A program made the translations under genes and the position numbers. The notes below the pieces were generated by a model. That model searched no databases. It saw only the letters and a program-made list of their open reading frames with translations, and was not told where the DNA came from. A stretch of 29,304 nucleotides of DNA from Candidatus Iainarchaeum sp. Its GTDB lineage: Archaea; Iainarchaeota; Iainarchaeia; Iainarchaeales; Iainarchaeaceae. Below, one piece after another: positions 1,711 to 29,304 of the stretch; positions within the stretch are counted from its first letter, which is position 1, and each line of letters opens with the position of its first letter. The stretch is taken from NCBI GenBank assembly GCA_043812975.1, contig JBDRLP010000040.1, forward strand, positions 1-29,304. Direction: 5' to 3'.

Positions 1711-2300
1711 AAATATTACTGATTGATAATTTTGATTCTTTTACTTATAATTTAGTTGATGAGTTTGAGAAAAGAAAATGTAAAGTGGAAGTTTACAGAA
1801 ATGATGTTCCGATAAAAACAATTAAGGAAATTGTGAAAAAAATGAAAGCAGATTTAATTGTAATTTCACCAGGACCAAGCACTCCAAAAAAAGCAGGCAA
1901 CAGCATGAAAATTATTAAAGAATTCAAAGGAAAAAAACCAATCTTCGGAGTTTGTTTAGGGGAACAAAGTATTATTGAAGCGCTTGGAGGAAAAGTTGGT
2001 AAAACCTTTGAAACAATTCATGGAAAAGCATCATTAATTAAGCACAATAACCAAGGTATTTTCAAAGGATTAAAAAATCCTTTTAGTGCTGGAAGATATC
2101 ATTCGCTTTCAGGACAAATAATTCCAAACGAGCTTGAAGTAAGTGCAAAAAGTTATTCGGGAATAGTAATGGGAGTTGCTCATAAAGAATATTTCCTAGA
2201 AGGAGTTCAGTTTCATCCTGAAAGTTTCCTTACTCCTGATGGTGGAAAAATTTTTGATAATGTTTTGAAAATGGTTAAATCAAAAGGAGTGAAAAAATGA
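1707..2300 (+). CDS. trpG: Anthranilate synthase component II (glutamine amidotransferase)
   Basis: IDNFDSFTYNL, SPGP, GVCLG and GVQFHPES motifs; ATGA overlap with trpE. Confidence 0.95.
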   Translation: MKILLIDNFDSFTYNLVDEFEKRKCKVEVYRNDVPIKTIKEIVKKMKADLIVISPGPSTPKKAGNSMKIIKEFKGKKPIFGVCLGEQSIIEALGGKVGKTFETIHGKASLIKHNNQGIFKGLKNPFSAGRYHSLSGQIIPNELEVSAKSYSGIVMGVAHKEYFLEGVQFHPESFLTPDGGKIFDNVLKMVKSKGVKK

Positions 2301-2383
2301 TTAATGTCCTACCGAGTCCATCCCTAAAGGGCGAGGTGGACGCGTACCCAACCGACGCAACGGTTGTGGGGGTGAAAAAATGA
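2297..2383 (+). CDS. 28-aa mini-ORF formed by the repeat element ([28 protein letters not shown])
   Basis: Its ATG overlaps the trpG TGA and its TGA overlaps the trpD ATG. Read manually; below the ORF-track length cutoff. Confidence 0.45.
   Translation: MINVLPSPSLKGEVDAYPTDATVVGVKK
2306..2366. repeat. Structured GC-rich repeat, copy A
   Basis: GTCCTACCGA...GAGGTGGACGCG-TACC-CAACCG-ACGCAA-CGGTTG; matches copies at 3399 and 24551. Confidence 0.85.
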
Positions 2384-3393
2384 TTTTGGAAGCAACTGAA
2401 AAAATTTCTGGGAAAAATAATCTCACTAGAGAAGAAGCAAAGGTGGTTTTTGATGAAATAATGAAAGGCAAAGCAACTCACGAACAGATTGTGAAACTCT
2501 TACTTGCACTGAATGAAAAAGGAGAATCAATTGAAGAAATACAAGGTGCTTGTGAATCAATGAGAAGTGTTGTTGCTAAAGTTACTTACTCAGGAGATGA
2601 AGATATTCTTGATGTTGTAGGAACCGGAGGAGACGGCAAAAGTTCTTTTAATGTTTCAACAACAAGCGCAATCGTGGCTGCTGGAGCAGGATGCATAGTT
2701 GCAAAGCATGGAAACAGAAGTGTTTCAAGTAAAAGCGGTGCTGCAGATGTGCTTGAAGCTTTAGGAGTTAATATTGAAACAAGTGCTGAGAGGAATTCTG
2801 AAATTTTGTCAAAAATTGGACTAGCCTTTATGTTTGCACCTAAACACCATCCTGCAATGAAGTATGCAATCGGTCCAAGAAAAGAAATTGGAAAAAGAAC
2901 AATATTCAATATTCTAGGGCCTATAACAAATCCGGCAAATGCTAATACTTATCTTTTAGGTGCTTATAGTGAGGAATTGGCTGAAAAACTGGCTTTTGTA
3001 CTGGCTGGATTAGACACAAAACATGCATTAGTAGTGCATGGTTCAGGGTTTGATGAAGCTACTTTAACCGGTAAAACAACAGTTTTTGCAGTATTAGATG
3101 GAAAAGTAGGAAAAACTGAAATAACTCCTGAACAGTTTGGATTGAAACTCTGTAAGGAAGAAGATCTGGCTGTGGAAAATGCTAAAGAATCCTCTGAGAT
3201 TGTAAAGAAAATTTTGAAAGGAGAAGAACAGGGAGCTAAAAGGAATACAATTCTTCTGAATGCTGGAATTGCAATTTTTGCTAATGGAAAAGCAAAAAGT
3301 ATTGAAGAAGGGATTGAGAAAGCAAGAGGAAGTATTGATTCCGGAAAAGCATTGGAAAAATTAAATTTACTTATAGAGGAGAGTAATAAATGA
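2380..3393 (+). CDS. trpD: Anthranilate phosphoribosyltransferase
   Basis: [35 protein letters not shown] and RTIFNILGP motifs. Confidence 0.97.
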
Positions 3394-4850: not shown

Positions 4851-6028
4851 AAGGTTACTTTGAGCAATATGGCGGACAGTTTGTTCCTGAAACTCTAATG
4901 CCAGCTGTGAACGAACTTGAAAAAGCATTCTACAAATACAAAAAAAATAAAAAATTCAACAAAGAACTGAATGAATTATTGAAAGATTTTGTAGGAAGAC
5001 CAACTGCTATTACTTATGCCCCCTCTTTGAGCAAAAAATATGGTTGTAAAATTTATCTGAAAAGAGAAGACCTTGCCCACACAGGAGCACATAAAATAAA
5101 CAATGCGATTGGCCAGGCACTTTTAGCTAAAAAAATGGGAAAGAAAAGAATTATTGCTGAAACAGGAGCTGGCCAGCACGGAGTTGCAACAGCAATTGCA
5201 TGTGCAATGCTTGGTTTAGAGTGTCATGTTTATATGGGTGAAGTTGATATTGAAAGGCAGAAGCCGAATGTTTTCAGAATGAAACTTGCAGGAGCAGAAG
5301 TTGTTCCTGTTTCAAGTGGTTCTAAAACTTTGAAAGATGCAATCAATGAAGCACTGAGAGACTGGACTGCTAATGTGGAAACCACACATTATTTGCTTGG
5401 TTCCGTGTTAGGACCGCACCCGTATCCTGAAATGGTTGCTTACTTCCAGAGCATTATTGGAAAGGAAGCAAGAAAACAGATTCTTGCTAAAGAAAATAAA
5501 CTTCCTAAAGCAATTATTGCATGCGTTGGCGGAGGCTCCAATGCAATCGGAATTTTCAAAGCTTTTTTGAATGATAAAAATGTTGAACTCATTGGTGTTG
5601 AGGCAGGTGGCTTAGGAATTAAAGGCGGAAAGCACGCTGCAAGGTTTGCGGATAAAAAAATCGGAAGAAAAGGAGTACTGCATGGAACACTAACTTATGT
5701 TCTGCAGGATAAAGCCGGACAAATTTACAATACCCATTCAATATCTGCTGGATTGGATTACTCAGCAGTGGGTCCGGAGCACTCCATGCTGCGCGATTTG
5801 AAAAGGGCAAAGTATTTTTACGCAACGGACAAGGAAGCACTTGACGCATTCAGGATTCTTTCTGAGAAGGAAGGAATTATTCCTGCGCTTGAGAGCGCGC
5901 ACGCGGTTGCTTATGCATTAAAGTACGCAAAGAAATGCAAAAAGAATGATATTATCCTAATTAATATTTCAGGAAGAGGAGACAAGGATTTGGAATCTGT
6001 TTCGAAAGCACTGGGGGAGAGGATATGA
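4847..6028 (+). CDS. trpB: Tryptophan synthase beta chain (TrpB1)
   Basis: [42 protein letters not shown] and SGRGDKD motifs. Confidence 0.98.
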
Positions 6029-14829: not shown

Positions 14830-15825
14830 TTATTTAGTAATTTTTTGGAAAGGTGAATAATTAATCTTATTAATTTTTGTGAAAATAAAATAATTATAAT
14901 CTTTGATTTTATCAGAAAACTTTTCCTTAAACCTTGACATTACTTCCAGAAACTCTGCATGCTTCTGGGCTACAAGCTCTATTTCAAAATCCGAATATGA
15001 AATACTCTCATCAACATAAATTGAGTTTGGGTTAGTTTTTGCAAACTCAAGCATTTCAGCATAATTTTCCAGATCTTTGAGATCAAAGTTTGCCTTATAA
15101 TGTGTCAACCCAAGTTTTTGAAGATTGATTCTGGTTCTGAAACCGAGAATAACTTTCTTTTCCCGAAGCTGTTTAATAGCGTACTTTACCTGGATTGCAC
15201 TTAAGCCTGCTTGTTTGGCTATCTCAACAGTAGGCATCCTTGCATTTTCAGAAATAATTTCAAGTACTTTTTCCTCAGTTCCTGTAAGTAATATTTTTTC
15301 TGCCGGCAATATACCTTGCGTTGATCTTTCAAGGACTTTTTCAGGCATAAAAAACGCATAGCTAAAATCATGTAACCCAACGTAAACTGAAATAACTTTT
15401 TCCTGAATATATTTCTGGTACTTATTTACAAAGCCATCCCAGAAATCCTTGAGCTCTAAAGTATTTTTTGCCCATATCAACACAGTAAGGTCAAAGGCAC
15501 CGTCAGTCGTACCGACCCACCATGTCAGAGGATGCTTCACCATATAGGAAAGGATTTCATTTTCTTTTTTCGGATTGATGTACTGCCACTTAAAGTAGAA
15601 TCTGTAACTCTGGTAACCAAGCTTAGTGGAGTTTATCACAGTATAAAAGCCACGAATAATATTTTTTTCCATGAGCCTGTTTATCCTGTAATTAACTACA
15701 TTTTTGTCAATACCTATTTTATCTGCTAATTTACTATTGCTCTGTCTTGCATCCCTGTCCAATTCAAACAGGATTTCATGGTCTTTTTTGTTCAAATCTG
15801 GAAAATTAAAAGAAAAACTACTCAT
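14830..15825 (-). CDS. Tandem-domain Lrp/AsnC-family transcriptional regulator
   Basis: Two HTH modules (LDRDARQSNSKLADKIG...VNYRINRL and ISENARMPTVEIAKQAG...VKYAIKQL), each followed by a RAM-like domain. ATG at 15825 preferred as start. Confidence 0.88.
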   Translation of the reverse strand: MSSFSFNFPDLNKKDHEILFELDRDARQSNSKLADKIGIDKNVVNYRINRLMEKNIIRGFYTVINSTKLGYQSYRFYFKWQYINPKKENEILSYMVKHPLTWWVGTTDGAFDLTVLIWAKNTLELKDFWDGFVNKYQKYIQEKVISVYVGLHDFSYAFFMPEKVLERSTQGILPAEKILLTGTEEKVLEIISENARMPTVEIAKQAGLSAIQVKYAIKQLREKKVILGFRTRINLQKLGLTHYKANFDLKDLENYAEMLEFAKTNPNSIYVDESISYSDFEIELVAQKHAEFLEVMSRFKEKFSDKIKDYNYFIFTKINKINYSPFQKITK

Positions 15826-15873
15826 TAAAGAATATTGATAAAACAAGTATAATAATTTATCATTTTGACCTAA

Positions 15874-15898
15874 TTTACTAGTAAAAGTTTAATTAAAC
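15874..15898. promoter_or_regulatory. Two adjacent perfect 12-bp palindromes in a divergent promoter region (candidate operators)
   Basis: TTTACTAGTAAA (15874-15885) and GTTTAATTAAAC (15887-15898). Confidence 0.4.
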
Positions 15899-15940
15899 AA
15901 GTAAAGCATAATAATACTATTAACCTTGATCGGTGATTAG

Positions 15941-16693
15941 ATGAAAAAGAATTTGCACTCTAGCAATCTTGTTGAAATGTGGGGAGATTTTATTGACTGG
16001 GAAGCCAGAAGGAAAGGGGAAAATGGTTTCCTTGAGAATACCCTAAGAGAAAACAAGTGCACAAAGATTTTTGACTCAACTTTGGGGGACGGCTGTGACT
16101 CAGTACATCTGATAAAAAAAGGATTTGATGTAACCAGTAATGAAGTTGATTCCAATTTCCTTGCCAAGGCTATCCAGAATTCAAAAAACCACAATGTTAA
16201 ACTGAAAGTTACTGAACACGATTGGAGAAATGTTTCTGAACATTTAGGGATTAACGTTTTTGATGCTGTGCTTTGCCTTGGAAATTCTATTGCTTATCTT
16301 TTCAAAAAAAATGACCGTCTGAAATCAATAAAAGAATTTTTCCGTATTTTAAAACCTGGCGGAATCCTAATTATTGACGAAAGAAACCATCGCTATCTCC
16401 TCAACAACCGCGAGGAAATTTTGAATGGAAATTTCAAGTACAAGGGAAAATATGTTTACTGCGGGAAACATGTAAAGGGCTTTCCAATTGAAATATCTGA
16501 TGACTTGTTCAAAATGAAATATGTTGATAACCGTAATGGAAAATTTGCCTCTCTGGATATTTATCCATATAAGGAAAATGAGCTTGAAAACGAGTTAAAG
16601 AACGCAGGTTTTGCAGACATAACCTTGTTTGCAGATTACAGTAAAACTCCTGAAGGAACTCCTGATTTTTTCCAGTACATTGCAAAGAAGTGA
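15941..16693 (+). CDS. Class I SAM-dependent methyltransferase, glycine/sarcosine N-methyltransferase-like
   Basis: WGDFIDWEARRKGE N-terminus, FDAVLCLGNS, LKPGGILIIDERN and PDFFQYIAKK resemble the GSMT family; GGTGA RBS. Confidence 0.8.
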   Translation: MKKNLHSSNLVEMWGDFIDWEARRKGENGFLENTLRENKCTKIFDSTLGDGCDSVHLIKKGFDVTSNEVDSNFLAKAIQNSKNHNVKLKVTEHDWRNVSEHLGINVFDAVLCLGNSIAYLFKKNDRLKSIKEFFRILKPGGILIIDERNHRYLLNNREEILNGNFKYKGKYVYCGKHVKGFPIEISDDLFKMKYVDNRNGKFASLDIYPYKENELENELKNAGFADITLFADYSKTPEGTPDFFQYIAKK

Positions 16694-16697
16694 TTGG

Positions 16698-18146
16698 ATG
16701 AAAATAGGTCTTGTTCATCCAAATTGTGATAGTGTCCATAAAAAACAAAGACAGGCTTACGGCCCTTTAGAAAGGCCACCGGAAACAGGTCTGGCAGTTT
16801 TAAGTTCATGGATCAAAGAATACTCTGTCAATGATCACGAGATAACTGTTTTCAACCCTAATAAATCAATAAAGGAACTTGCCAGGCAGGCATCACAATG
16901 TGATTTATTGGGAATGACTAACTGGTTTGCCAATCACGGTTATTGCATAGAAATATCCAGGCTTGCAAAACAAATTAACCCTGAATTGAAAGTTGTTTTC
17001 GGCGGTCCAAATGCTTCAATGATTCCAAAAGAAATTTTTCATAATAACTCCCATGTTGACTATGTTGTAAACCGCGATGGGGAAGATGCATTGCTTTCCA
17101 TTGCGGATGAAAAACCATTAAGCTTAGTTCCAAATTTGTGGTTTAAAGACAGTTATAATAATCCACGGTTTACTTTTCAATCTTACACTGATTTGTCAAA
17201 AATGCCTTTGTGGAATTATTCTAATTTTGAGGATGTGGAAAAAAGATTTTCTGAATATTTGCATGTGCAAAAAACAGGTTTGGATCCATGGCTTACTCCT
17301 CCATTGACGCTTTTCAGTTTTAGGGGCTGCCTGAAAGCCATTAGGGAAGGAATCTGCAGTTACTGCACTTCATCTGAAGCAACAGGAAGAATGTTATCTG
17401 CTCAAAAATTCTGGGATCAGATAATGCACTTGAATAATAATTATGATGCAGAAATTTTTTACATGGCTGACGATATTTTCCCTGTAAGTCCTATTAGAAT
17501 AAATACTTTAGCAAATGCAAAGCCTCATGAAGCAAGAGCAAAAATAAGGGCTTACGCATATCTCCCTTATCTTTCAAAGCTGGCAGATTCCCAGTTAACC
17601 CGAATGGCACATGACCTACAAAAAATTGGAGTATTCAATTTGTTTTTTGGCGCAGAAAACTATGATGAAAACATTCTAAAGAATATCAATAAAACAGGAA
17701 TTAGCGTTGAGGAAACTGCCAGAATAATGAAACTGTTTTACAAGGAAGGCGGAATAAAATCCACAGTTGCTTTTATGCTTGGGTTGCCTGGAGAATCAAA
17801 ACAAACCATGGAGTATAATAAAAATGTTCTTAAGAGACTTCTCGAATCAGGCTGCTTTGAGAGACTTTACATTTCTATTGCTGCTCCTTTTAAAGGAAGT
17901 TTTTGGTGTAAAAGCCTTGAGTCAGATAAAAAATTCCTTGCAGACTATGAGACTGCTACAGGCAAGAATCTGCAGTTTGATGATGCTCCTGATTATGGGT
18001 TGCTTTCAAGGTTGTCCATTAAGCACAAAACCTCAACAAATCCCGAGGAACTTATCAATTATTTTGAGTCAATGATTGACATGGCTTTACAGTATATGCC
18101 TGAATATAGAGTAGGTGGATTTTTAACCGATTTTGGAGTTAACTGA
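16698..18146 (+). CDS. B12-binding-domain radical SAM protein
   Basis: N-terminal cobalamin-binding domain (VVFGGPNAS, DYVVNRDGE), then RGC-x8-C-x2-C, MADDIF, FGAEN and FMLGLPGES. ATG 16698 preferred over the TTG at 16629. Confidence 0.85.
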   Translation: MKIGLVHPNCDSVHKKQRQAYGPLERPPETGLAVLSSWIKEYSVNDHEITVFNPNKSIKELARQASQCDLLGMTNWFANHGYCIEISRLAKQINPELKVVFGGPNASMIPKEIFHNNSHVDYVVNRDGEDALLSIADEKPLSLVPNLWFKDSYNNPRFTFQSYTDLSKMPLWNYSNFEDVEKRFSEYLHVQKTGLDPWLTPPLTLFSFRGCLKAIREGICSYCTSSEATGRMLSAQKFWDQIMHLNNNYDAEIFYMADDIFPVSPIRINTLANAKPHEARAKIRAYAYLPYLSKLADSQLTRMAHDLQKIGVFNLFFGAENYDENILKNINKTGISVEETARIMKLFYKEGGIKSTVAFMLGLPGESKQTMEYNKNVLKRLLESGCFERLYISIAAPFKGSFWCKSLESDKKFLADYETATGKNLQFDDAPDYGLLSRLSIKHKTSTNPEELINYFESMIDMALQYMPEYRVGGFLTDFGVN

Positions 18147-18153
18147 TTTAGAT

Positions 18154-18181
18154 GATTGTGAATACGCGAATACTTACAATT
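18154..18181. terminator. Hairpin between convergent genes, possible terminator
   Basis: GATTGTGAATA-CGCGAA-TACTTACAATT imperfect stem. Confidence 0.35.
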
Positions 18182-18222
18182 AAAAATTTCTAGGGCAACT
18201 GTAACTGAGGCTAATGTTGATT

Positions 18223-19215
18223 TTAGGATTCCCACGGGAAGAGAATGAGCTTGTATTCCTTGTAGTAAAGCATTATTTCAAAATCCCTCACAATGTCATT
18301 GAACTTGTACCTCATATCATTCATAAACTCCTGGAGTTCAGAACTGTTCCTGAAGAAACCCTCTATTTCAAGATCAGCACCACCTATGAGCTCATCCGTG
18401 TAAACAATGTTAGGATGCTGAATACAATAATTATTTAGTTCATTGAATCTTTTTTCCGAATAATCCTTAAAGGAAGCGTGTATTTTCCAGTACTCATAAC
18501 CTATTTTGGAGAGGTCAAGCTGCACACCATAACTTCCAATAACTCTCTCCTTTTCTAAATTTTTTATTCGATAAGAAACAACCTTGTCACTTGCTCCAAC
18601 CTGTTGTGCAATTGAGATTAATGGTTCACGCGCATGCTCGGAAAGAACGCTAAGTATTTTCACATCAAGATCATCAAAATCAATTTTTTCACTACCACCC
18701 ATTACAAACGGTTCAAATGATTCTGGTTTTTTTCCAACAAGAAATCCTTTTGGTAGATTGATGAACCAGCCAAAAAGAGATGTCCAGCGATTGGAAATAT
18801 AGTTTCCATAAAGTTTTTTGAATTCTTTCCAGAATTTGAAAAAGTGATTGGTGCTTTTTGCCCAGTAAATGAAATTAATATCCCAGTTGCCCTGCACTTT
18901 TGCACACCAGCCAACCTGCTTTTGGGAAACTATATAATCTATAAGTTCTTTCTCTTTTTCAGGAGTAATGTTCTGCAACCTGAGAAAAGTTCTGAACATC
19001 TCAAGACCCATTTTTGAAGCATCAACTCTCGCGTAAAAACTCCTGATGACACCTTCTTCAGTAAGCTTGTTTATTCTATAATTAACTACTTCCTTGCTCA
19101 AACCAACTTTCTTTCCTATCTGGGAAAGGGACTGCCTTGCATCAAGATCCAGTTCATAAAGGATTTTTCTATCTTTAACATCTAATTCCAATACTTTTTC
19201 AACCATATTTACCAT
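18223..19215 (-). CDS. Tandem-domain Lrp/AsnC-family transcriptional regulator
   Basis: LDVKDRKILYELDLDARQSLSQIGKKVGLSKEVVNYRI plus a second HTH; paralog of 14830-15825. Confidence 0.9.
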   Translation of the reverse strand: MVNMVEKVLELDVKDRKILYELDLDARQSLSQIGKKVGLSKEVVNYRINKLTEEGVIRSFYARVDASKMGLEMFRTFLRLQNITPEKEKELIDYIVSQKQVGWCAKVQGNWDINFIYWAKSTNHFFKFWKEFKKLYGNYISNRWTSLFGWFINLPKGFLVGKKPESFEPFVMGGSEKIDFDDLDVKILSVLSEHAREPLISIAQQVGASDKVVSYRIKNLEKERVIGSYGVQLDLSKIGYEYWKIHASFKDYSEKRFNELNNYCIQHPNIVYTDELIGGADLEIEGFFRNSSELQEFMNDMRYKFNDIVRDFEIMLYYKEYKLILFPWES

Positions 19216-24606: not shown

Positions 24607-27600
24607 TTAAAGGTAATCTTTCCATGGAATTATTTCCAAATCTTTTTCTTTAAGCCTTACAATTGAATGCAAAAATGCTTTTGCAATCTGAAGGTTTGTA
24701 ATCAAAGGAACATTATAATCAATAACCATTCTTCTAATATCATATTTAGGGTCTGTTGCAATTTGTCTGAAAGGATCTGCAACAGTTATCACAAGATCTA
24801 ATTCATTTTTCTGTAATTTTGAAAGAACATTTGGTTGTTTTTCCTCATGCAATTTATGAACTGTTTCACAATCAATTCCATTTTCACTAAGGAATTCGCT
24901 AGTATGGTCAGTTGCAAAAATATTATACCCTACGTCTGCAAGTTCAATTATTTCAGGAAGTAATTTTTCCTTATTAGACTGGCCTGTTAAGGAAATCAGA
25001 ATATTCTTTTTTGGAATCGTGTAACCAGTGCTAAGTAAAGATTTCAGGAATGCATCTTCAAAAGTTGTTCCTATACAAGCTACCTCTCCAGTGGAAGCCA
25101 TTTCAACCCCGGAAATAGGATCTGCGCCTTTTAATCTTGAAAAGGAAAACTGAGGCGCCTTAACACCAACATGATCTAATTCTAAAAAAGAGTGATTGTT
25201 ATCAGGAATTTCTTCCCCCATAATTGCTCTTGTTGCTATTCCAATGAAATTTGTTCCTGTTACCTTTGAAACAAAAGGTATTGAACGAGAAGCACGCAAA
25301 TTAACCTCAATAACCTTAACCTCATTATCTTTAGCAATAAACTGAATATTGAAAGGACCTGAAATTTCAAGCGAAGCAGCCATTTTGGAGGCAATTTTTT
25401 TCATTTTTGAAACCGTGGCTAAATAGGTTTTCTGAGGCGGAAGCACCATAGTAGCATCTCCGGAGTGAACTCCTGCATTCTCAATGTGTTCAGTAACCGC
25501 AATAACAACAATCTTTCCGTTCTCAGCAACAGCATCAATTTCAACTTCCTTAGCATTCAAAATGAATTTGCTAATGACTACGGGATAATCCTCATCTAAA
25601 GAAGTAGCTGCAGTAAGATACTGTTCAAGTTCTTCTTCATTAAAAGCAACAGCCATTGCAGAACCACTAAGCACATAAGAAGGCCGGATTAAAACAGGAT
25701 ACGAAACTTTTTCCGCAAACTTTTTTGCTTCAACAAGAGTTGTTAATTCTTTCCATTCTGGTTGAGGAACCCCCAACTCATCACAAAGTGAACTGAACTT
25801 ATTCCGGTCTTCTGCAGTATCAATTTTATTAGGAGAAGTTCCGAGAACATTCAAACCAAGCTGCTGGCACTTTAATGCCAAATTGTTTGGAATCTGCCCT
25901 CCGACAGAAACAATCAACCCGATAGGATTTTCCTTTTCATAAATATCAGCAACATTTTCAAGGGAAAGCTCATCAAAGTAAAGCTTATCACATTCATCAT
26001 AATCTGTTGAAACAGTTTCAGGATTAAAGTTAATCATTATTGTTTCATAACCAAGTTCTTTGAGTTCTTTTACGCAAGAAACACAACAAAAATCAAATTC
26101 AACACTCGAACCAATCTTATAAGCCCCTGAACCTAAAACTATAACTTTCTTTTTTCCCTCAAAATCAATATCATCCTCAATACCATTATAAGTCATGTAC
26201 AAATAATTTGTTTGTGCAGGGTATTCTGCGGCAAGAGTATCAATTTGTTTTACAACAGAGAATATTTCCATTGTTTTTCTTTTTTCACGGACATATTTTT
26301 CACTAACATTATTCAAAAGCATTGCAATTTGTTTATCAGAAAACCCCTGTTTCTTTGCTTTAACCAAAAGTTCTCTGGAAATTGAATCTATGGTTTCTGT
26401 TTCAATTATTTTCTTTGTATCAACAACATTCTTTATTTTGTATAAGAACCATTTATCAATTTTTGAAGCAGAATGAATTTTATCAATCGAAATTCCTTTT
26501 TCCATTGCTTCAACAATTGCAAAAACTCTCTGGTCAGTCGGATACTTAACTTCATGAACAAGTTTTTTGAAATAAACCTTGTTTCCAACCAAACCATACA
26601 TTCCAATGTGAAGCATTCTGATTGCTTTTTGAATTGCTTCCTCAAAAGTTTTTCCGATTGCCATTACTTCTCCTACACTTTTCATTTCAGTTCCTATTCT
26701 TTTAGAAACATTCCTGAATTTTTGCAGATCCCACCGGGGAATTTTAACAACAATATAATCCAAAGCAGGTTCAAAGCACGCTTTTGTTGTTTTAGTAACC
26801 TGATTTTCCAGATCAAGGAGCGAATACCCCAAACCTAATTTTGCTGCTACAAATGCAAGAGGATACCCAGTTGCTTTTGATGCAAGAGCTGAGCTTCTTG
26901 ATAATCTTGCATTAACCTCAATAACCCTGTACTCATCATTTTCAGGGTTTAAAGCGAACTGAATATTACATTCCCCTATAATCCCCAAACGCCTGATTAC
27001 TCTGATAGAAATTTCCCTGAGCTTATGGTACTCGTGATTATCAAGGGTTTGAGAAGGAGCAACTACAATAGATTCCCCAGTATGAATCCCGAGAGGATCA
27101 AAGTTTTCCATATTACAAACAGTAATGCAATTATCAAAAGCATCTCTGACAACCTCATACTCAATTTCCTTCCAACCGGATAAACATTCTTCTACAAGAA
27201 TTTGTTCTGAATACTTGAAAGCTTTCTGAGCAGTATCTTCCAATTCTTCCATTGTTTTTACAACACCAGAACCTTTTCCTCCAAGAGCAAAAGCTGCACG
27301 AACCATTACAGGATAAGAAATTTTTTCCGCAGCACCAAGAGCCTCTTCCACAGAATTAACTGCAAATGATTTTGGAGTGTCAACATTAACCGCATTAAGT
27401 TCATGTTTGAATAATTCCCTGTCTTCAGTAAGCTGAATTGTTTTAACAGGAGTTCCAAGAACTTTCACTTTATGCTTTTTTAACACACCTTTATTTTCTA
27501 ATTCAAAACCACAATTCAAAGCAGTTTGTCCTCCGAAAGAAAGTAAAATCCCGTCTGGTTTTTCCTTTTCAATTACTTTTTCAACAAAATAAGGAGTTAC

Positions 27601-27836
27601 AGGTAAAAAATAAACCTGATCCGCAAAACCTTTTGAGGTTTGAACCGTGGCAATGTTCGGGTTGATAACTATCGTTTTTATACCCTCTTCTCTGAGTGCT
27701 TTTATGGCCTGCGAACCGGAGTAGTCGAATAGACGGCAAGCATAGAACTGAATCAGACCCATAACCTGCTTTCGCCGGCCTGTCCGATTTGCAGGGCGCC
27801 AGAACCTAAGATCAAAACTTTTTTTGGTTTATCCAT
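24607..27836 (-). CDS. carB: Carbamoyl-phosphate synthase large subunit; exon 1 27836-27771 and exon 2 27729-24607 (1062 aa when joined)
   Basis: GGAGGTGA RBS, then MDKPKKVLILGSGALQIGQAGE | FDYSGSQAIKAL. Both ATP-grasp halves and the C-terminal MGS domain are intact. Confidence 0.95.
27730..27770 (-). other. Putative 41-nt archaeal BHB/BHL-type mRNA intron
   Basis: The insert breaks the frame and contains a stop. It forms a GGCG/CGUC 4-bp helix with AA^A and UA^U cut sites and an internal hairpin. Removal restores GAA|TTC. Confidence 0.85.
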
Positions 27837-28077
27837 TGTTCACCTCCGCCTTAACTTTCCACATATAAGACCTGTTAAGTGCAACTCTTCCGTCTCTCTC
27901 TATTAAACCTTGTTTCTCCATTTTAATAAGTCTTTTTAGGGTGAAAGTTTTACCAAAATTTAAAGATTTTGCAAGTTCTCCTATAGATAAACCCTTTTTG
28001 GGTTCATTGCCGGTGCAAACTTTTTTTGGTTTTTGAATTTCGTTTTCTTCGATTTTTTTTCCTGTCAATTCAAACAC
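27829..28077 (-). CDS. Small winged helix-turn-helix protein between carA and carB
   Basis: GLSIGELAKSLNFGKTFTLKRLIKMEKQGLIER. Its GTG start directly follows the carA stop, and it overlaps the carB start. Confidence 0.7.
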   Translation of the reverse strand: MFELTGKKIEENEIQKPKKVCTGNEPKKGLSIGELAKSLNFGKTFTLKRLIKMEKQGLIERDGRVALNRSYMWKVKAEVNNG

Positions 28078-29160
28078 CTATTTTATAATCTCCATGAATT
28101 TATCAAACAAATAATTTGTATCCACAGGACCAGGACTTGCTTCAGGGTGGAACTGAACTGAAAAGAACGGTTTGTGTTTGTGTCTTATTCCTTCTACAGT
28201 ATCATCGTTTGCGTTTTTCATCCAGACTTCCCAGTTAGATGGAAGAGTTGCTTCCTTTATTGCAAAACCATGGTTTTGGGAAGTAATGAAGAACTTTTTT
28301 TTACCTGAAATATAACAAGGCTGATTTTGTGATCTGTGACCATACTTTAATTTATAAGTGTCAGCACCTGCAGCTAAACCAAGCAATTGGTTTCCTAAGC
28401 ATATTCCAAAAATTGGAATTTCTTTTTCCATTGTTTTTTTAATATTCTCAATTGTTTCCCTGCACATTTTAGGGTCTCCGGGACCATTGCTAATGAAAAG
28501 ACCGTCAAAGTTTTTGTGTTCAAATTTTTCATCAAAAAAATCAAAATCCCACGGAACCCTAACAACCTGAACACCTCTTTTCAGGAACTCATGAATAATA
28601 TTATTCTTAACCCCGCAATCAATTAGTAAAACTTTTTTTCCAGATTTTCCGCCGTAGGCAACAGGCTTATGAATGCTTACTTCTTCCACTAGATTTTCTT
28701 TGTTCGGATCATAAAAATCAATGTCCTTATCATTAATCACTATTTTTCCAAGCATTGTTCCTTTTTCACGCAGGATTTTTGTCAAAGACCTGATATCAAT
28801 TCCGGTAATGGCAGGAATCTTTTCTTTGACTAACCATTCACCTAAAGATTTTGAAGCTGAATGATGTGAATAACCCTCTGAATAATCCTGTACAACCAGC
28901 CCCTGAACCTGGATTTTATGCGATTCAAAATTTTTTATCAACTGATTTTCAAGAACTTTGTTCGGAACACCATAATTACCTACTAAAGGATAAGTAAAGC
29001 ATAATATCTGACCAGCATAGCTTGGATCAGTAAGAGATTCAGGATAACCAACCATTCCTGTGTTAAAAACAACTTCCCCGGCGGTTGAAAAAGGAAAACC
29101 AAATGAAGTTCCTTCAAACGTAGTGCCGTCCTCTAAAATTAGCTTTGCATTCATACCCAT
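28078..29160 (-). CDS. carA: Carbamoyl-phosphate synthase small subunit
   Basis: GEVVFNTGMVGYPESLTDPSY, SNGPGDP, FGICLG, SQNHGFA and VQFHPEASPGP motifs. A GGAGGT RBS favours ATG 29160. Confidence 0.97.
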   Translation of the reverse strand: MGMNAKLILEDGTTFEGTSFGFPFSTAGEVVFNTGMVGYPESLTDPSYAGQILCFTYPLVGNYGVPNKVLENQLIKNFESHKIQVQGLVVQDYSEGYSHHSASKSLGEWLVKEKIPAITGIDIRSLTKILREKGTMLGKIVINDKDIDFYDPNKENLVEEVSIHKPVAYGGKSGKKVLLIDCGVKNNIIHEFLKRGVQVVRVPWDFDFFDEKFEHKNFDGLFISNGPGDPKMCRETIENIKKTMEKEIPIFGICLGNQLLGLAAGADTYKLKYGHRSQNQPCYISGKKKFFITSQNHGFAIKEATLPSNWEVWMKNANDDTVEGIRHKHKPFFSVQFHPEASPGPVDTNYLFDKFMEIIK

Positions 29161-29304
29161 GGGAATACCTCCCATTTGAAAAAATTAAAAGAAAAAGGTC
29201 TTGGCAAAAATAAACCAAAACAAAAACTAAGTTTCTTCATCCTAAAAAAAAATTTATGCCCCTCACTGTTTAAAAGGGTATTGAGTGATTTTGCGACATA
29301 ATGC

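Follow-up and report, generated by a model that had tools for sequence, protein, structure and literature searches.

In the archaeon Candidatus Iainarchaeum sp., the gene carB for the large chain of carbamoyl-phosphate synthase is interrupted after its 22nd codon by 41 nucleotides (nt). We analyzed this insert within a 29,304-nt stretch of DNA (contig JBDRLP010000040.1, positions 1 to 29,304, assembly GCA_043812975.1; hereafter the window). With a probability of roughly three in four, we read it as a tRNA-type, relaxed bulge-helix-bulge (BHB)-like intron of the carB pre-mRNA that forms a mobile pair with a free-standing homing endonuclease gene (HEG). The 41-nt feature itself lies far beyond chance, because an insert at the same boundary recurs in 18 genomes with a common core fold and covarying helices. 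The host belongs to the Iainarchaeales (DPANN); the window is contig C40 of a 1.24-Mb, 68-contig assembly (94.5% complete), in which the stretch occurs in a single copy, and the DNA sequencing runs that match parts of it are groundwater metagenomes.

carB is read on the minus strand from an ATG at 27836, and its 5' region and coding parts are arranged as follows.

27841..27847, minus strand: Shine-Dalgarno-like GGAGGTG (27847-27841), read directly from the sequence, 4 nt 5' of the carB start
27771..27836, minus strand: carB exon 1, 22 codons from ATG to GAA, MDKPKKVLILGSGALQIGQAGE (from the sequence, the open reading frame list and relatives)
27730..27770, minus strand: predicted intron, 41 nt (from the sequence, folding and an 18-allele comparison)
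24607..27729, minus strand: carB exon 2, 1040 codons plus stop, with the full set of large-chain domains

A first-pass annotation, made from the letters of the stretch, had described this layout of a strong ribosome-binding site (RBS), the ATG, 22 codons and a 41-nt insert, and we recovered it to the base. Unspliced, the first frame yields only the 27-amino-acid (aa) open reading frame (ORF; 27753-27836) that the same annotation had foreseen. A second unspliced ORF of 1051 aa (24607-27762) starts at an ATG inside the insert (27762) and bears the full carbamoyl-phosphate synthase (CPSase) domain set. On the 3' side of the insert the carB frame resumes with TTC GAC TAC TCC GGT (product FDYSGSQAIKAL), and exon 2 matches the Pfam domains CPSase_L_D2 (9.5e-111), CPSase_L_D1, CPSase_L_D3 and MGS. 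Within the insert, GCAGGU (27769-27764) is predicted to pair with GCUUGC (27741-27736). The insert also has an inner hairpin, and it ends in CGUC (27735-27732), which supplies the central helix with its 3' strand, and then UA.

The insert is shared among relatives. Using a codon-level pattern that admitted any 15-45 nt between GxAGE and FDYSGSQA, we found inserts of 33-42 nt at the identical codon boundary in 18 of the 215 genomes of the phylum, spread over eight families; carB was detected in 65 of the 215, and therefore about 28% of carB genes bear the insert. Three more insert-bearing copies lie on metagenome contigs. In the first set of relatives (n = 29 carB 5' ends), eight had an insert of 39-42 nt exactly there and 21 had none. 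A first, narrower DNA pattern, which fixed the intron helix as GCA..., matched nine of the 196 genomes of the order and missed nine of the 18 alleles found later. Applied to public genome contigs, it hit ten loci, seven of them carB in archaeal metagenome-assembled genomes; the other three, all bacterial, and five of its eight metagenome-contig matches were rejected as chance, none being in carB. The GE/FD junction (a slash marks the splice or cut position here and below) is unbroken in a contig of an intronless relative from run X1, where the equivalent of 27771 is joined directly to the FDYSG codons. Record 3 of that run is a 7.7-kb groundwater contig with an intronless carB, whose exon-1 part (27771-27827) differs from the window at 7 of 57 letters. 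Because this contig comes from the same data set, intron-bearing and intronless relatives appear to co-occur in one groundwater data set.

At the protein level, every one of the 18 inserts stops the read-through frame, including the eight whose length is divisible by three. With the insert removed in silico, no stop appears in up to 416 codons in any of the 18 (the window gene is clean over 400 codons), and the cut sites proposed by the first-pass annotation rebuild GQAGE/FDYSG in all 18 insert-bearing genomes. Between the window genome (G000) and its intronless sister G003, carB differs by 122 synonymous and 20 non-synonymous codon changes; the final 16 codons of exon 1 show eight synonymous changes and no non-synonymous one. 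Since synonymous changes prevail in both comparisons, both exons are, on this measure, translated and constrained as protein. The conserved GSG...GQAGE stretch, which exon 1 encodes, is found in every intronless relative examined.

The RNA fold is conserved in the same alleles. All 18 share one order of elements: exon GGYG, AA/A, intron helix, variable loop, helix partner, CGYC, NA/U and exon UUYGAC. The central helix GGYG/CGYC is paired at four of four positions throughout, with G-C/G-U and C-G/U-G variants, and the intron helix has 4-6 base pairs (bp) in every allele. RNAalifold, run on the first eight sequences and then on a register-fixed alignment of all 18, gave as its consensus one long irregular stem that passes from exon-exon helices through three pairs to the central helix and the intron hairpin. 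In the window, the parts of this stem that flank and contain the predicted cuts are:

27773..27797, minus strand: exon-1 strand of the exon-exon stem, ending in GGCG 27776-27773 (RNAalifold consensus)
27770..27772, minus strand: 5' bulge AAA, predicted cut 27771/27770 (AA/A), invariant in 18 of 18
27727..27731, minus strand: 3' splice-site loop UAUUC, predicted cut 27730/27729 (UA/U) (RNAalifold)
27707..27729, minus strand: exon-2 strand of the exon-exon stem, UUCGACUACUCCGGUUCGCAGGC (RNAalifold consensus)

The 5' site is a clean 3-nt bulge followed by the intron-side helix, and the 3' site in the window allele is a 1x5 internal loop. The first-pass annotation had called this a relaxed bulge-helix-loop (BHL) form, with an internal loop in place of a strict bulge on the exon side, and the consensus fold bears it out; its positions for GGCG, CGUC, AAA (27772-27770) and UAU (27731-27729) and its pairing of the intron hairpin were also right.

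Covariation supports the helices individually. Positions 1-4 of the intron helix pair in all 16 distinct introns; when 5' and 3' strands are swapped between introns, only 69 of 240 combinations pair at these first four positions, and with the partner strand slid by 1-3 nt, 0-2 of the 16 introns still pair. Position 1 is always G-C, position 2 is CG, UA or UG, position 3 is AU, CG, UA or UG, and position 4 is AU, UA, GU, GC or CG. Of the exon-exon helices, one has 4 bp and the other 7 bp; they persist in 16-18 of the 18 rows, and in three rows both partners of a C-G pair have changed, at synonymous sites, to give U-A. The comparison of carB among relatives that had been proposed as a check thus combines a patchy presence and absence of the insert with compensatory changes in its helices.

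Synonymous sites around the insert carry a further trace of the stem. In one family (f1), seven alleles bear the intron, and no two of them (21 pairs) differ at a third codon position from codon -9 to codon +7, with -7 and +6 as the exceptions; at the same codons, the 14 intronless alleles of this family have a third-position identity of 0.22-0.74, 0.14-0.74 being the range for intronless alleles, and outside these codons the identity is about 0.4 in all classes. This zone of freezing matches the extent of the predicted exon-exon stem, as would be expected if selection acts on an RNA structure of which the exons are part. We rejected a recent, long conversion tract as the cause of the freezing, as the intron loops differ between the frozen alleles.

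The host genome encodes the enzymes that such an intron would need. EndA is a 169-aa ORF at C42:13717-14223 (PF01974, 5.3e-25, 87.6 bits) with no second paralogue in this genome at E<=10; it aligns gap-free, end to end, with the M. jannaschii alpha4 enzyme 1a79 and therefore lacks inserted loops. There is one RtcB (PF01139, 3.6e-81), without internal stops. The first-pass annotation had noted that a bacterial host with no splicing endonuclease would speak against an intron, and the host proves to be an archaeon with both enzymes; together with the restored junction in 18 of 18 alleles and the compensatory helix changes, this supports its candidate BHB/BHL mRNA intron. The plain alpha4 type of the host EndA, and the LAGLIDADG gene remnant directly upstream of carB described below, go beyond what it had recorded. 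ARAGORN predicts 36 tRNAs in the genome, 15 of them with introns, and 11 of these 15 are strict BHB introns in a motif check: their central helix is paired 4/4, the helix of the anticodon stem has 5-7 bp and that of the intron 3 bp or more. Over the window, ARAGORN found no tRNA and Rfam no family at threshold. A scan of the genome for other BHB-like, frame-restoring inserts, which had also been suggested at first pass, was run and reduced 67,412 motif matches to 2,116 candidates and then to 82, but the 82 were mostly AT-rich gene junctions and the last filter dropped carB itself, so the scan does not discriminate. One further ARAGORN call, a tRNA-Glu(ctc) at C53:4440-5767 with a 1233-nt intron, showed no intron-side helix in the BHB check and may be either false or a large intron with cargo.

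The second partner of the proposed pair lies between carA and carB. Directly upstream of the carB region and in the same orientation, the window holds:

28078..29175, minus strand: carA (CPSase small chain), intact; Pfam CPSase_sm_chain 1.6e-49, GATase 1.1e-58
27829..28077, minus strand: 82-aa ORF, remnant of the C-terminal (winged-helix) part of a LAGLIDADG HEG, by BLASTP to the 460-aa HEG ORF of genome G002

The spacer between carA and carB is occupied in G002 and G035 by an ORF of 450-460 codons, which has two motifs of the LAGLIDADG type and matches PF14528; the G002 and G035 versions share 42% identity. The remnant in the window matches the G002 protein at 23 of 45 positions (E 4e-13), the homologous part covering about 27853-27987; the remainder of the gene is gone, and the end of the remnant ORF overlaps the carB RBS and start. 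A search of all 196 genomes of the order placed orthologs at E<1e-80 in five genomes (G002, G035, G082, G116 and G117), the next best match being 1.8e-22 and the many weaker matches being other LAGLIDADG genes. All five full-length HEGs stand between carA and an intron-bearing carB, directly upstream of the latter, and no orthologous HEG was found beside an intronless carB in those 196 genomes. Over the 18 intron alleles, the HEG is full-length in five, a remnant in five (besides the window, G006, where it lies at a contig end, G019, G120 and G170) and without trace in eight. The arrangement points to collaborative homing.

The phylogeny of the host genes is consistent with a moving intron. 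A maximum-likelihood tree, computed by a quick search, covered the N-terminal parts of 38 carB genes, of which 17 have the intron and 21 are intronless ones from the first set (G082 was omitted as too short). On this tree the intron needs 11 gains or losses and is no more clustered than shuffled labels (116/500), and G000 is sister to the intronless G003 with a support of 98. G016 and G022 carry identical 40-nt introns, though their carB genes differ at 221 of 416 codons, which we take as evidence of a transfer between lineages.

The spacer between carA and carB varies in other respects. Sister genomes (loci L004, L005, L007, L008, L009 and L015) have a gene for a 256-aa TauE/SafE-like membrane protein there; it is absent from the window spacer (27837-28077) and, with that query, was not found elsewhere in the window's genome. 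Because the TauE-like gene of the sisters was not found in this genome, the spacer was apparently exchanged when the HEG arrived. One genus has, in this spacer, a family of ORFs of about 186 aa that match nothing in Pfam; they stand beside intronless genes (L017:2202-2759(-), L020:2196-2753(-), L021:2195-2761(-), and L018:2585-3106(-) and 2234-2581(-)). In G019, whose carB bears the intron, this ORF is duplicated and the second copy has the HEG remnant at its C-terminus. In a 479-aa ORF upstream of the intronless carB of G023 (L031:2193-3629(-)), motifs resembling LAGLIDADG can be made out by eye; neither Pfam nor the HEG query matched this ORF.

Elsewhere in the window's genome, tRNA genes with predicted introns are directly adjoined by free-standing LAGLIDADG ORFs (about 320-340 aa) in three places:

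C6:4504-5463(+): LAGLIDADG ORF beside tRNA-Ser(tga) 5448-5566
C46:833-1846(+): LAGLIDADG ORF beside tRNA-Ala(cgc) 669-775, with a clean BHB intron
C36:18972-19931(-): LAGLIDADG ORF beside tRNA-Asp(gtc) 18855-18969, with a clean BHB intron

This layout of an endonuclease beside an intron suggests collaborative homing of tRNA introns too. The genome has 22 PF14528 matches, many within very long frames (831-1546 aa) in which the LAGLIDADG domains are probably inteins of large proteins; this load of homing elements is unusual for a genome of 1.24 Mb. Away from carB, the window contains two genes for double winged-helix AsnC/Lrp-type regulators (14830-15846 and 18223-19215; region 14830-19215), with a methyltransferase gene and a B12-binding radical-SAM gene between them. 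metK (PF01941) was not found in this genome.

As a plausible mechanism, exons 1 and 2 of the carB transcript would pair into the long irregular stem, which would present the GGCG/CGUC helix, the 5' bulge AA/A, the 3' loop UA/U and the intron hairpin to the single EndA. EndA would cut after the second nucleotide at both sites; a cut between the second and third bulge residues is the rule stated for the cbf5 introns (PMC2738675). RtcB would then join GAA to UUC, restoring GQAGE-FDYSG and a CarB of 1062 aa; an unspliced transcript would give no more than a 27-aa peptide or a protein shortened at its N-terminus. The long exon-exon stem may, as a speculation, compensate for the relaxed 3' site with an alpha4 EndA. 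On the DNA side, the product of the free-standing, double-motif LAGLIDADG gene in the carA-carB spacer would cleave the conserved site in intronless carB; the intron would split that site and protect the carrier, and repair would copy the intron, sometimes along with the HEG, into new genomes. The HEG could then decay, as the intron would be losable only by precise deletion; in the window, the HEG is down to its 82-codon remnant while the intron persists. More broadly, we lean slightly towards a DPANN class of mobile BHB-like mini-introns of 33-42 nt that are removed by the host tRNA-splicing machinery, spread with the help of LAGLIDADG endonucleases and reside in both protein and tRNA genes.

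Several observations weigh against an EndA-spliced, HEG-mobilized intron. The 3' site is no strict bulge, with an adjacent exon-side helix of 0 bp in the window and 0-1 bp among the 18 alleles, and a true 3-nt 3' bulge could be closed by an A-U or G-U pair in 11 of the 18 rows, among them G116 but not the window allele. The stability of the fold is unexceptional (z = -1.47; 14 of 200 shuffles fold equally well), and therefore the structural argument rests on covariation. The sole EndA is of the loop-less, plain alpha4 type, a class described as strict for the canonical BHB; cleavage of relaxed motifs has been tied to inserted EndA loops and loop-less enzymes are called strict (PMC5829648, PMC12397907). 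The tRNA introns of the same genome mostly fit the strict motif (11/15). The ATG inside the insert is in frame in the window allele and opens the alternative 1051-aa ORF, and the sequencing runs that match positions 26800-28300 of the window included no RNA run. With regard to mobility, no HEG trace was found upstream of carB in G004, G016, G022, G052, G056, G121, G164 and G171, the target and the cutting activity of the endonuclease are presumed, and the carB tree is a quick one.

Some of these observations would suit other explanations. The non-canonical 3' bulge and an only EndA of the type described as strict would be expected if the insert were removed from the RNA by a different endonuclease and ligase, or by an activity that recognizes the GGYG/CGYC hairpin. 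We regard this as unlikely, as all 18 alleles have exactly the geometry of EndA substrates, with a helix of 4 bp, a 5' bulge of 3 nt and cuts after two nucleotides that join in frame, and our literature searches turned up no alternative archaeal pathway for splicing out inserts this short; according to PMC6125680, all known archaeal introns are of the BHB type, the exceptions being a few of group II and those of group I reported in that paper. Alternatively, the ribosome might bypass the insert on an unspliced mRNA, in the manner of T4 gene 60 or the mitochondrial byps, since the coding gap is short (33-42 nt) and structured, has a hairpin adjoining the take-off point and separates two exons that are both under protein-level selection. 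However, the take-off codon GAA has no matching landing triplet (CUA, CCA, CAA or CAG precedes the resume codon in the 18 alleles), the codon after take-off is AGC or AGU and no stop, and neither a conserved 3' strand complementary to the last bases of exon 1 nor exon-exon pairing on both sides is known as a feature of bypassing. We consider bypassing highly improbable.

The in-frame ATG of the window insert raises the question of whether carB is a pseudogene, or whether a truncated protein is made from position 27762 with exon 1 as a relic; DPANN archaea often lose biosynthetic genes, and carB was found in just 65 of the 215 genomes. Yet the in-frame start is not conserved among the alleles, and in G004, for instance, a stop inside the insert closes the downstream frame and no start follows it. 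Exon 1 retains its start, its RBS and its amino acids (the eight synonymous and zero non-synonymous changes against G003) and encodes the GSG...GQAGE stretch conserved in all the intronless relatives, while carA is intact and no further stops occur in any of the 18 alleles, so that a decayed or shortened gene is very unlikely. An artefact of assembly or sequencing might be suspected of a metagenome-assembled genome, the more so as the contigs of runs X1, X2 and X6 give no cover over 27712-27759. Its probability is negligible, and we rejected it, because same-site inserts that differ and covary were assembled separately in 18 genomes and on three metagenome contigs.

The closest known relative of an EndA-spliced carB intron is that of cbf5 in the Crenarchaeota (Desulfurococcales and Sulfolobales), likewise a short intron in an archaeal protein gene with a mostly relaxed BHB-like motif, predicted cuts between the second and third bulge residues and a patchy pattern of gain and loss, as described in PMC2738675. 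The two differ in several ways. cbf5 encodes an RNA-modification enzyme in Crenarchaeota and carB a metabolic enzyme in the DPANN Iainarchaeota; the relaxed motifs of cbf5 have been tied to a hetero-oligomeric enzyme (PMC2738675), whereas the present host has a single loop-less alpha4-type EndA; and splicing of cbf5 was shown by cDNA (PMC2738675), while the carB case is known from DNA. carB, in addition, has a neighboring HEG. For this last feature, the better parallel is the group I intron of psbA in cyanophage S-PM2 with its endonuclease F-CphI, where a free-standing endonuclease gene adjoins the intron-bearing gene, the intron sits at the endonuclease's target and protects its carrier, and the endonuclease mobilizes the intron (PMC6083498); mobE and I-TevIII of T4 offer a further case of collaborative homing (PMC2790892). 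Under such homing, intron copies without a HEG and decayed HEGs are expected. In contrast to the self-splicing group I ribozymes of the phages, the carB element is a predicted protein-spliced one of 33-42 nt in a cellular archaeal chromosome, and its endonuclease is of the LAGLIDADG family with a presumed cleavage specificity.

The BHB introns of archaeal tRNAs and rRNAs would share with carB the same EndA and RtcB, the 4-bp helix and the cut two nucleotides into the bulge, and the window's own genome provides at least 11 canonical tRNA examples as well as the three intron-predicted tRNA genes that abut LAGLIDADG ORFs. Archaeal rRNA introns often enclose LAGLIDADG genes. At carB, on the other hand, the 3' site is relaxed and the HEG lies outside the intron; the intron stands within coding sequence, so that splicing decides the reading frame, and its outer helix is built from codons, so that synonymous sites are frozen. 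A more distant counterpart is the spliceosome-independent mRNA splicing of HAC1/XBP1, in which Ire1 cleaves at paired stem-loops, RtcB ligates in animals, and removal of a short intron changes the frame. Both systems would combine protein-catalyzed intron removal with an RtcB-type ligation; a role of RtcB in XBP-1 splicing has been described (PMC8718801). They differ in that the nuclease there is Ire1 and the process is eukaryotic and regulated by stress, whereas carB shows no sign of regulation. Our literature search, which had most subscription journals outside its scope, found no BHB intron in carB, none in a protein gene outside the Crenarchaeota (cbf5 being the only case found) and none paired with a free-standing endonuclease. 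An archaeal pre-mRNA intron of the BHB type is known, and what the carB case would add is the mobile-element partner and the alpha4 host enzyme.

If the proposed reading is true, EndA- and RtcB-dependent mRNA splicing would be no crenarchaeal oddity but would reach another superphylum and a core metabolic gene, and central metabolism in these archaea would depend on EndA and RtcB. A plain alpha4 EndA would then tolerate relaxed substrates, provided that the sites are kept in place by a long exon-exon stem, which makes carB a natural test of how strict loop-less alpha4 endonucleases are, and the frozen synonymous sites would be a clear example of RNA structure limiting codon choice. Automatic annotation will label such carB genes as truncated or frameshifted, distorting the picture of DPANN metabolism, for example through an inferred auxotrophy for pyrimidines or arginine. 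The link to the HEG provides a testable mechanism for the entry and persistence of short protein-spliced introns in coding sequences, and would imply that a route for such introns into coding sequences is still active.

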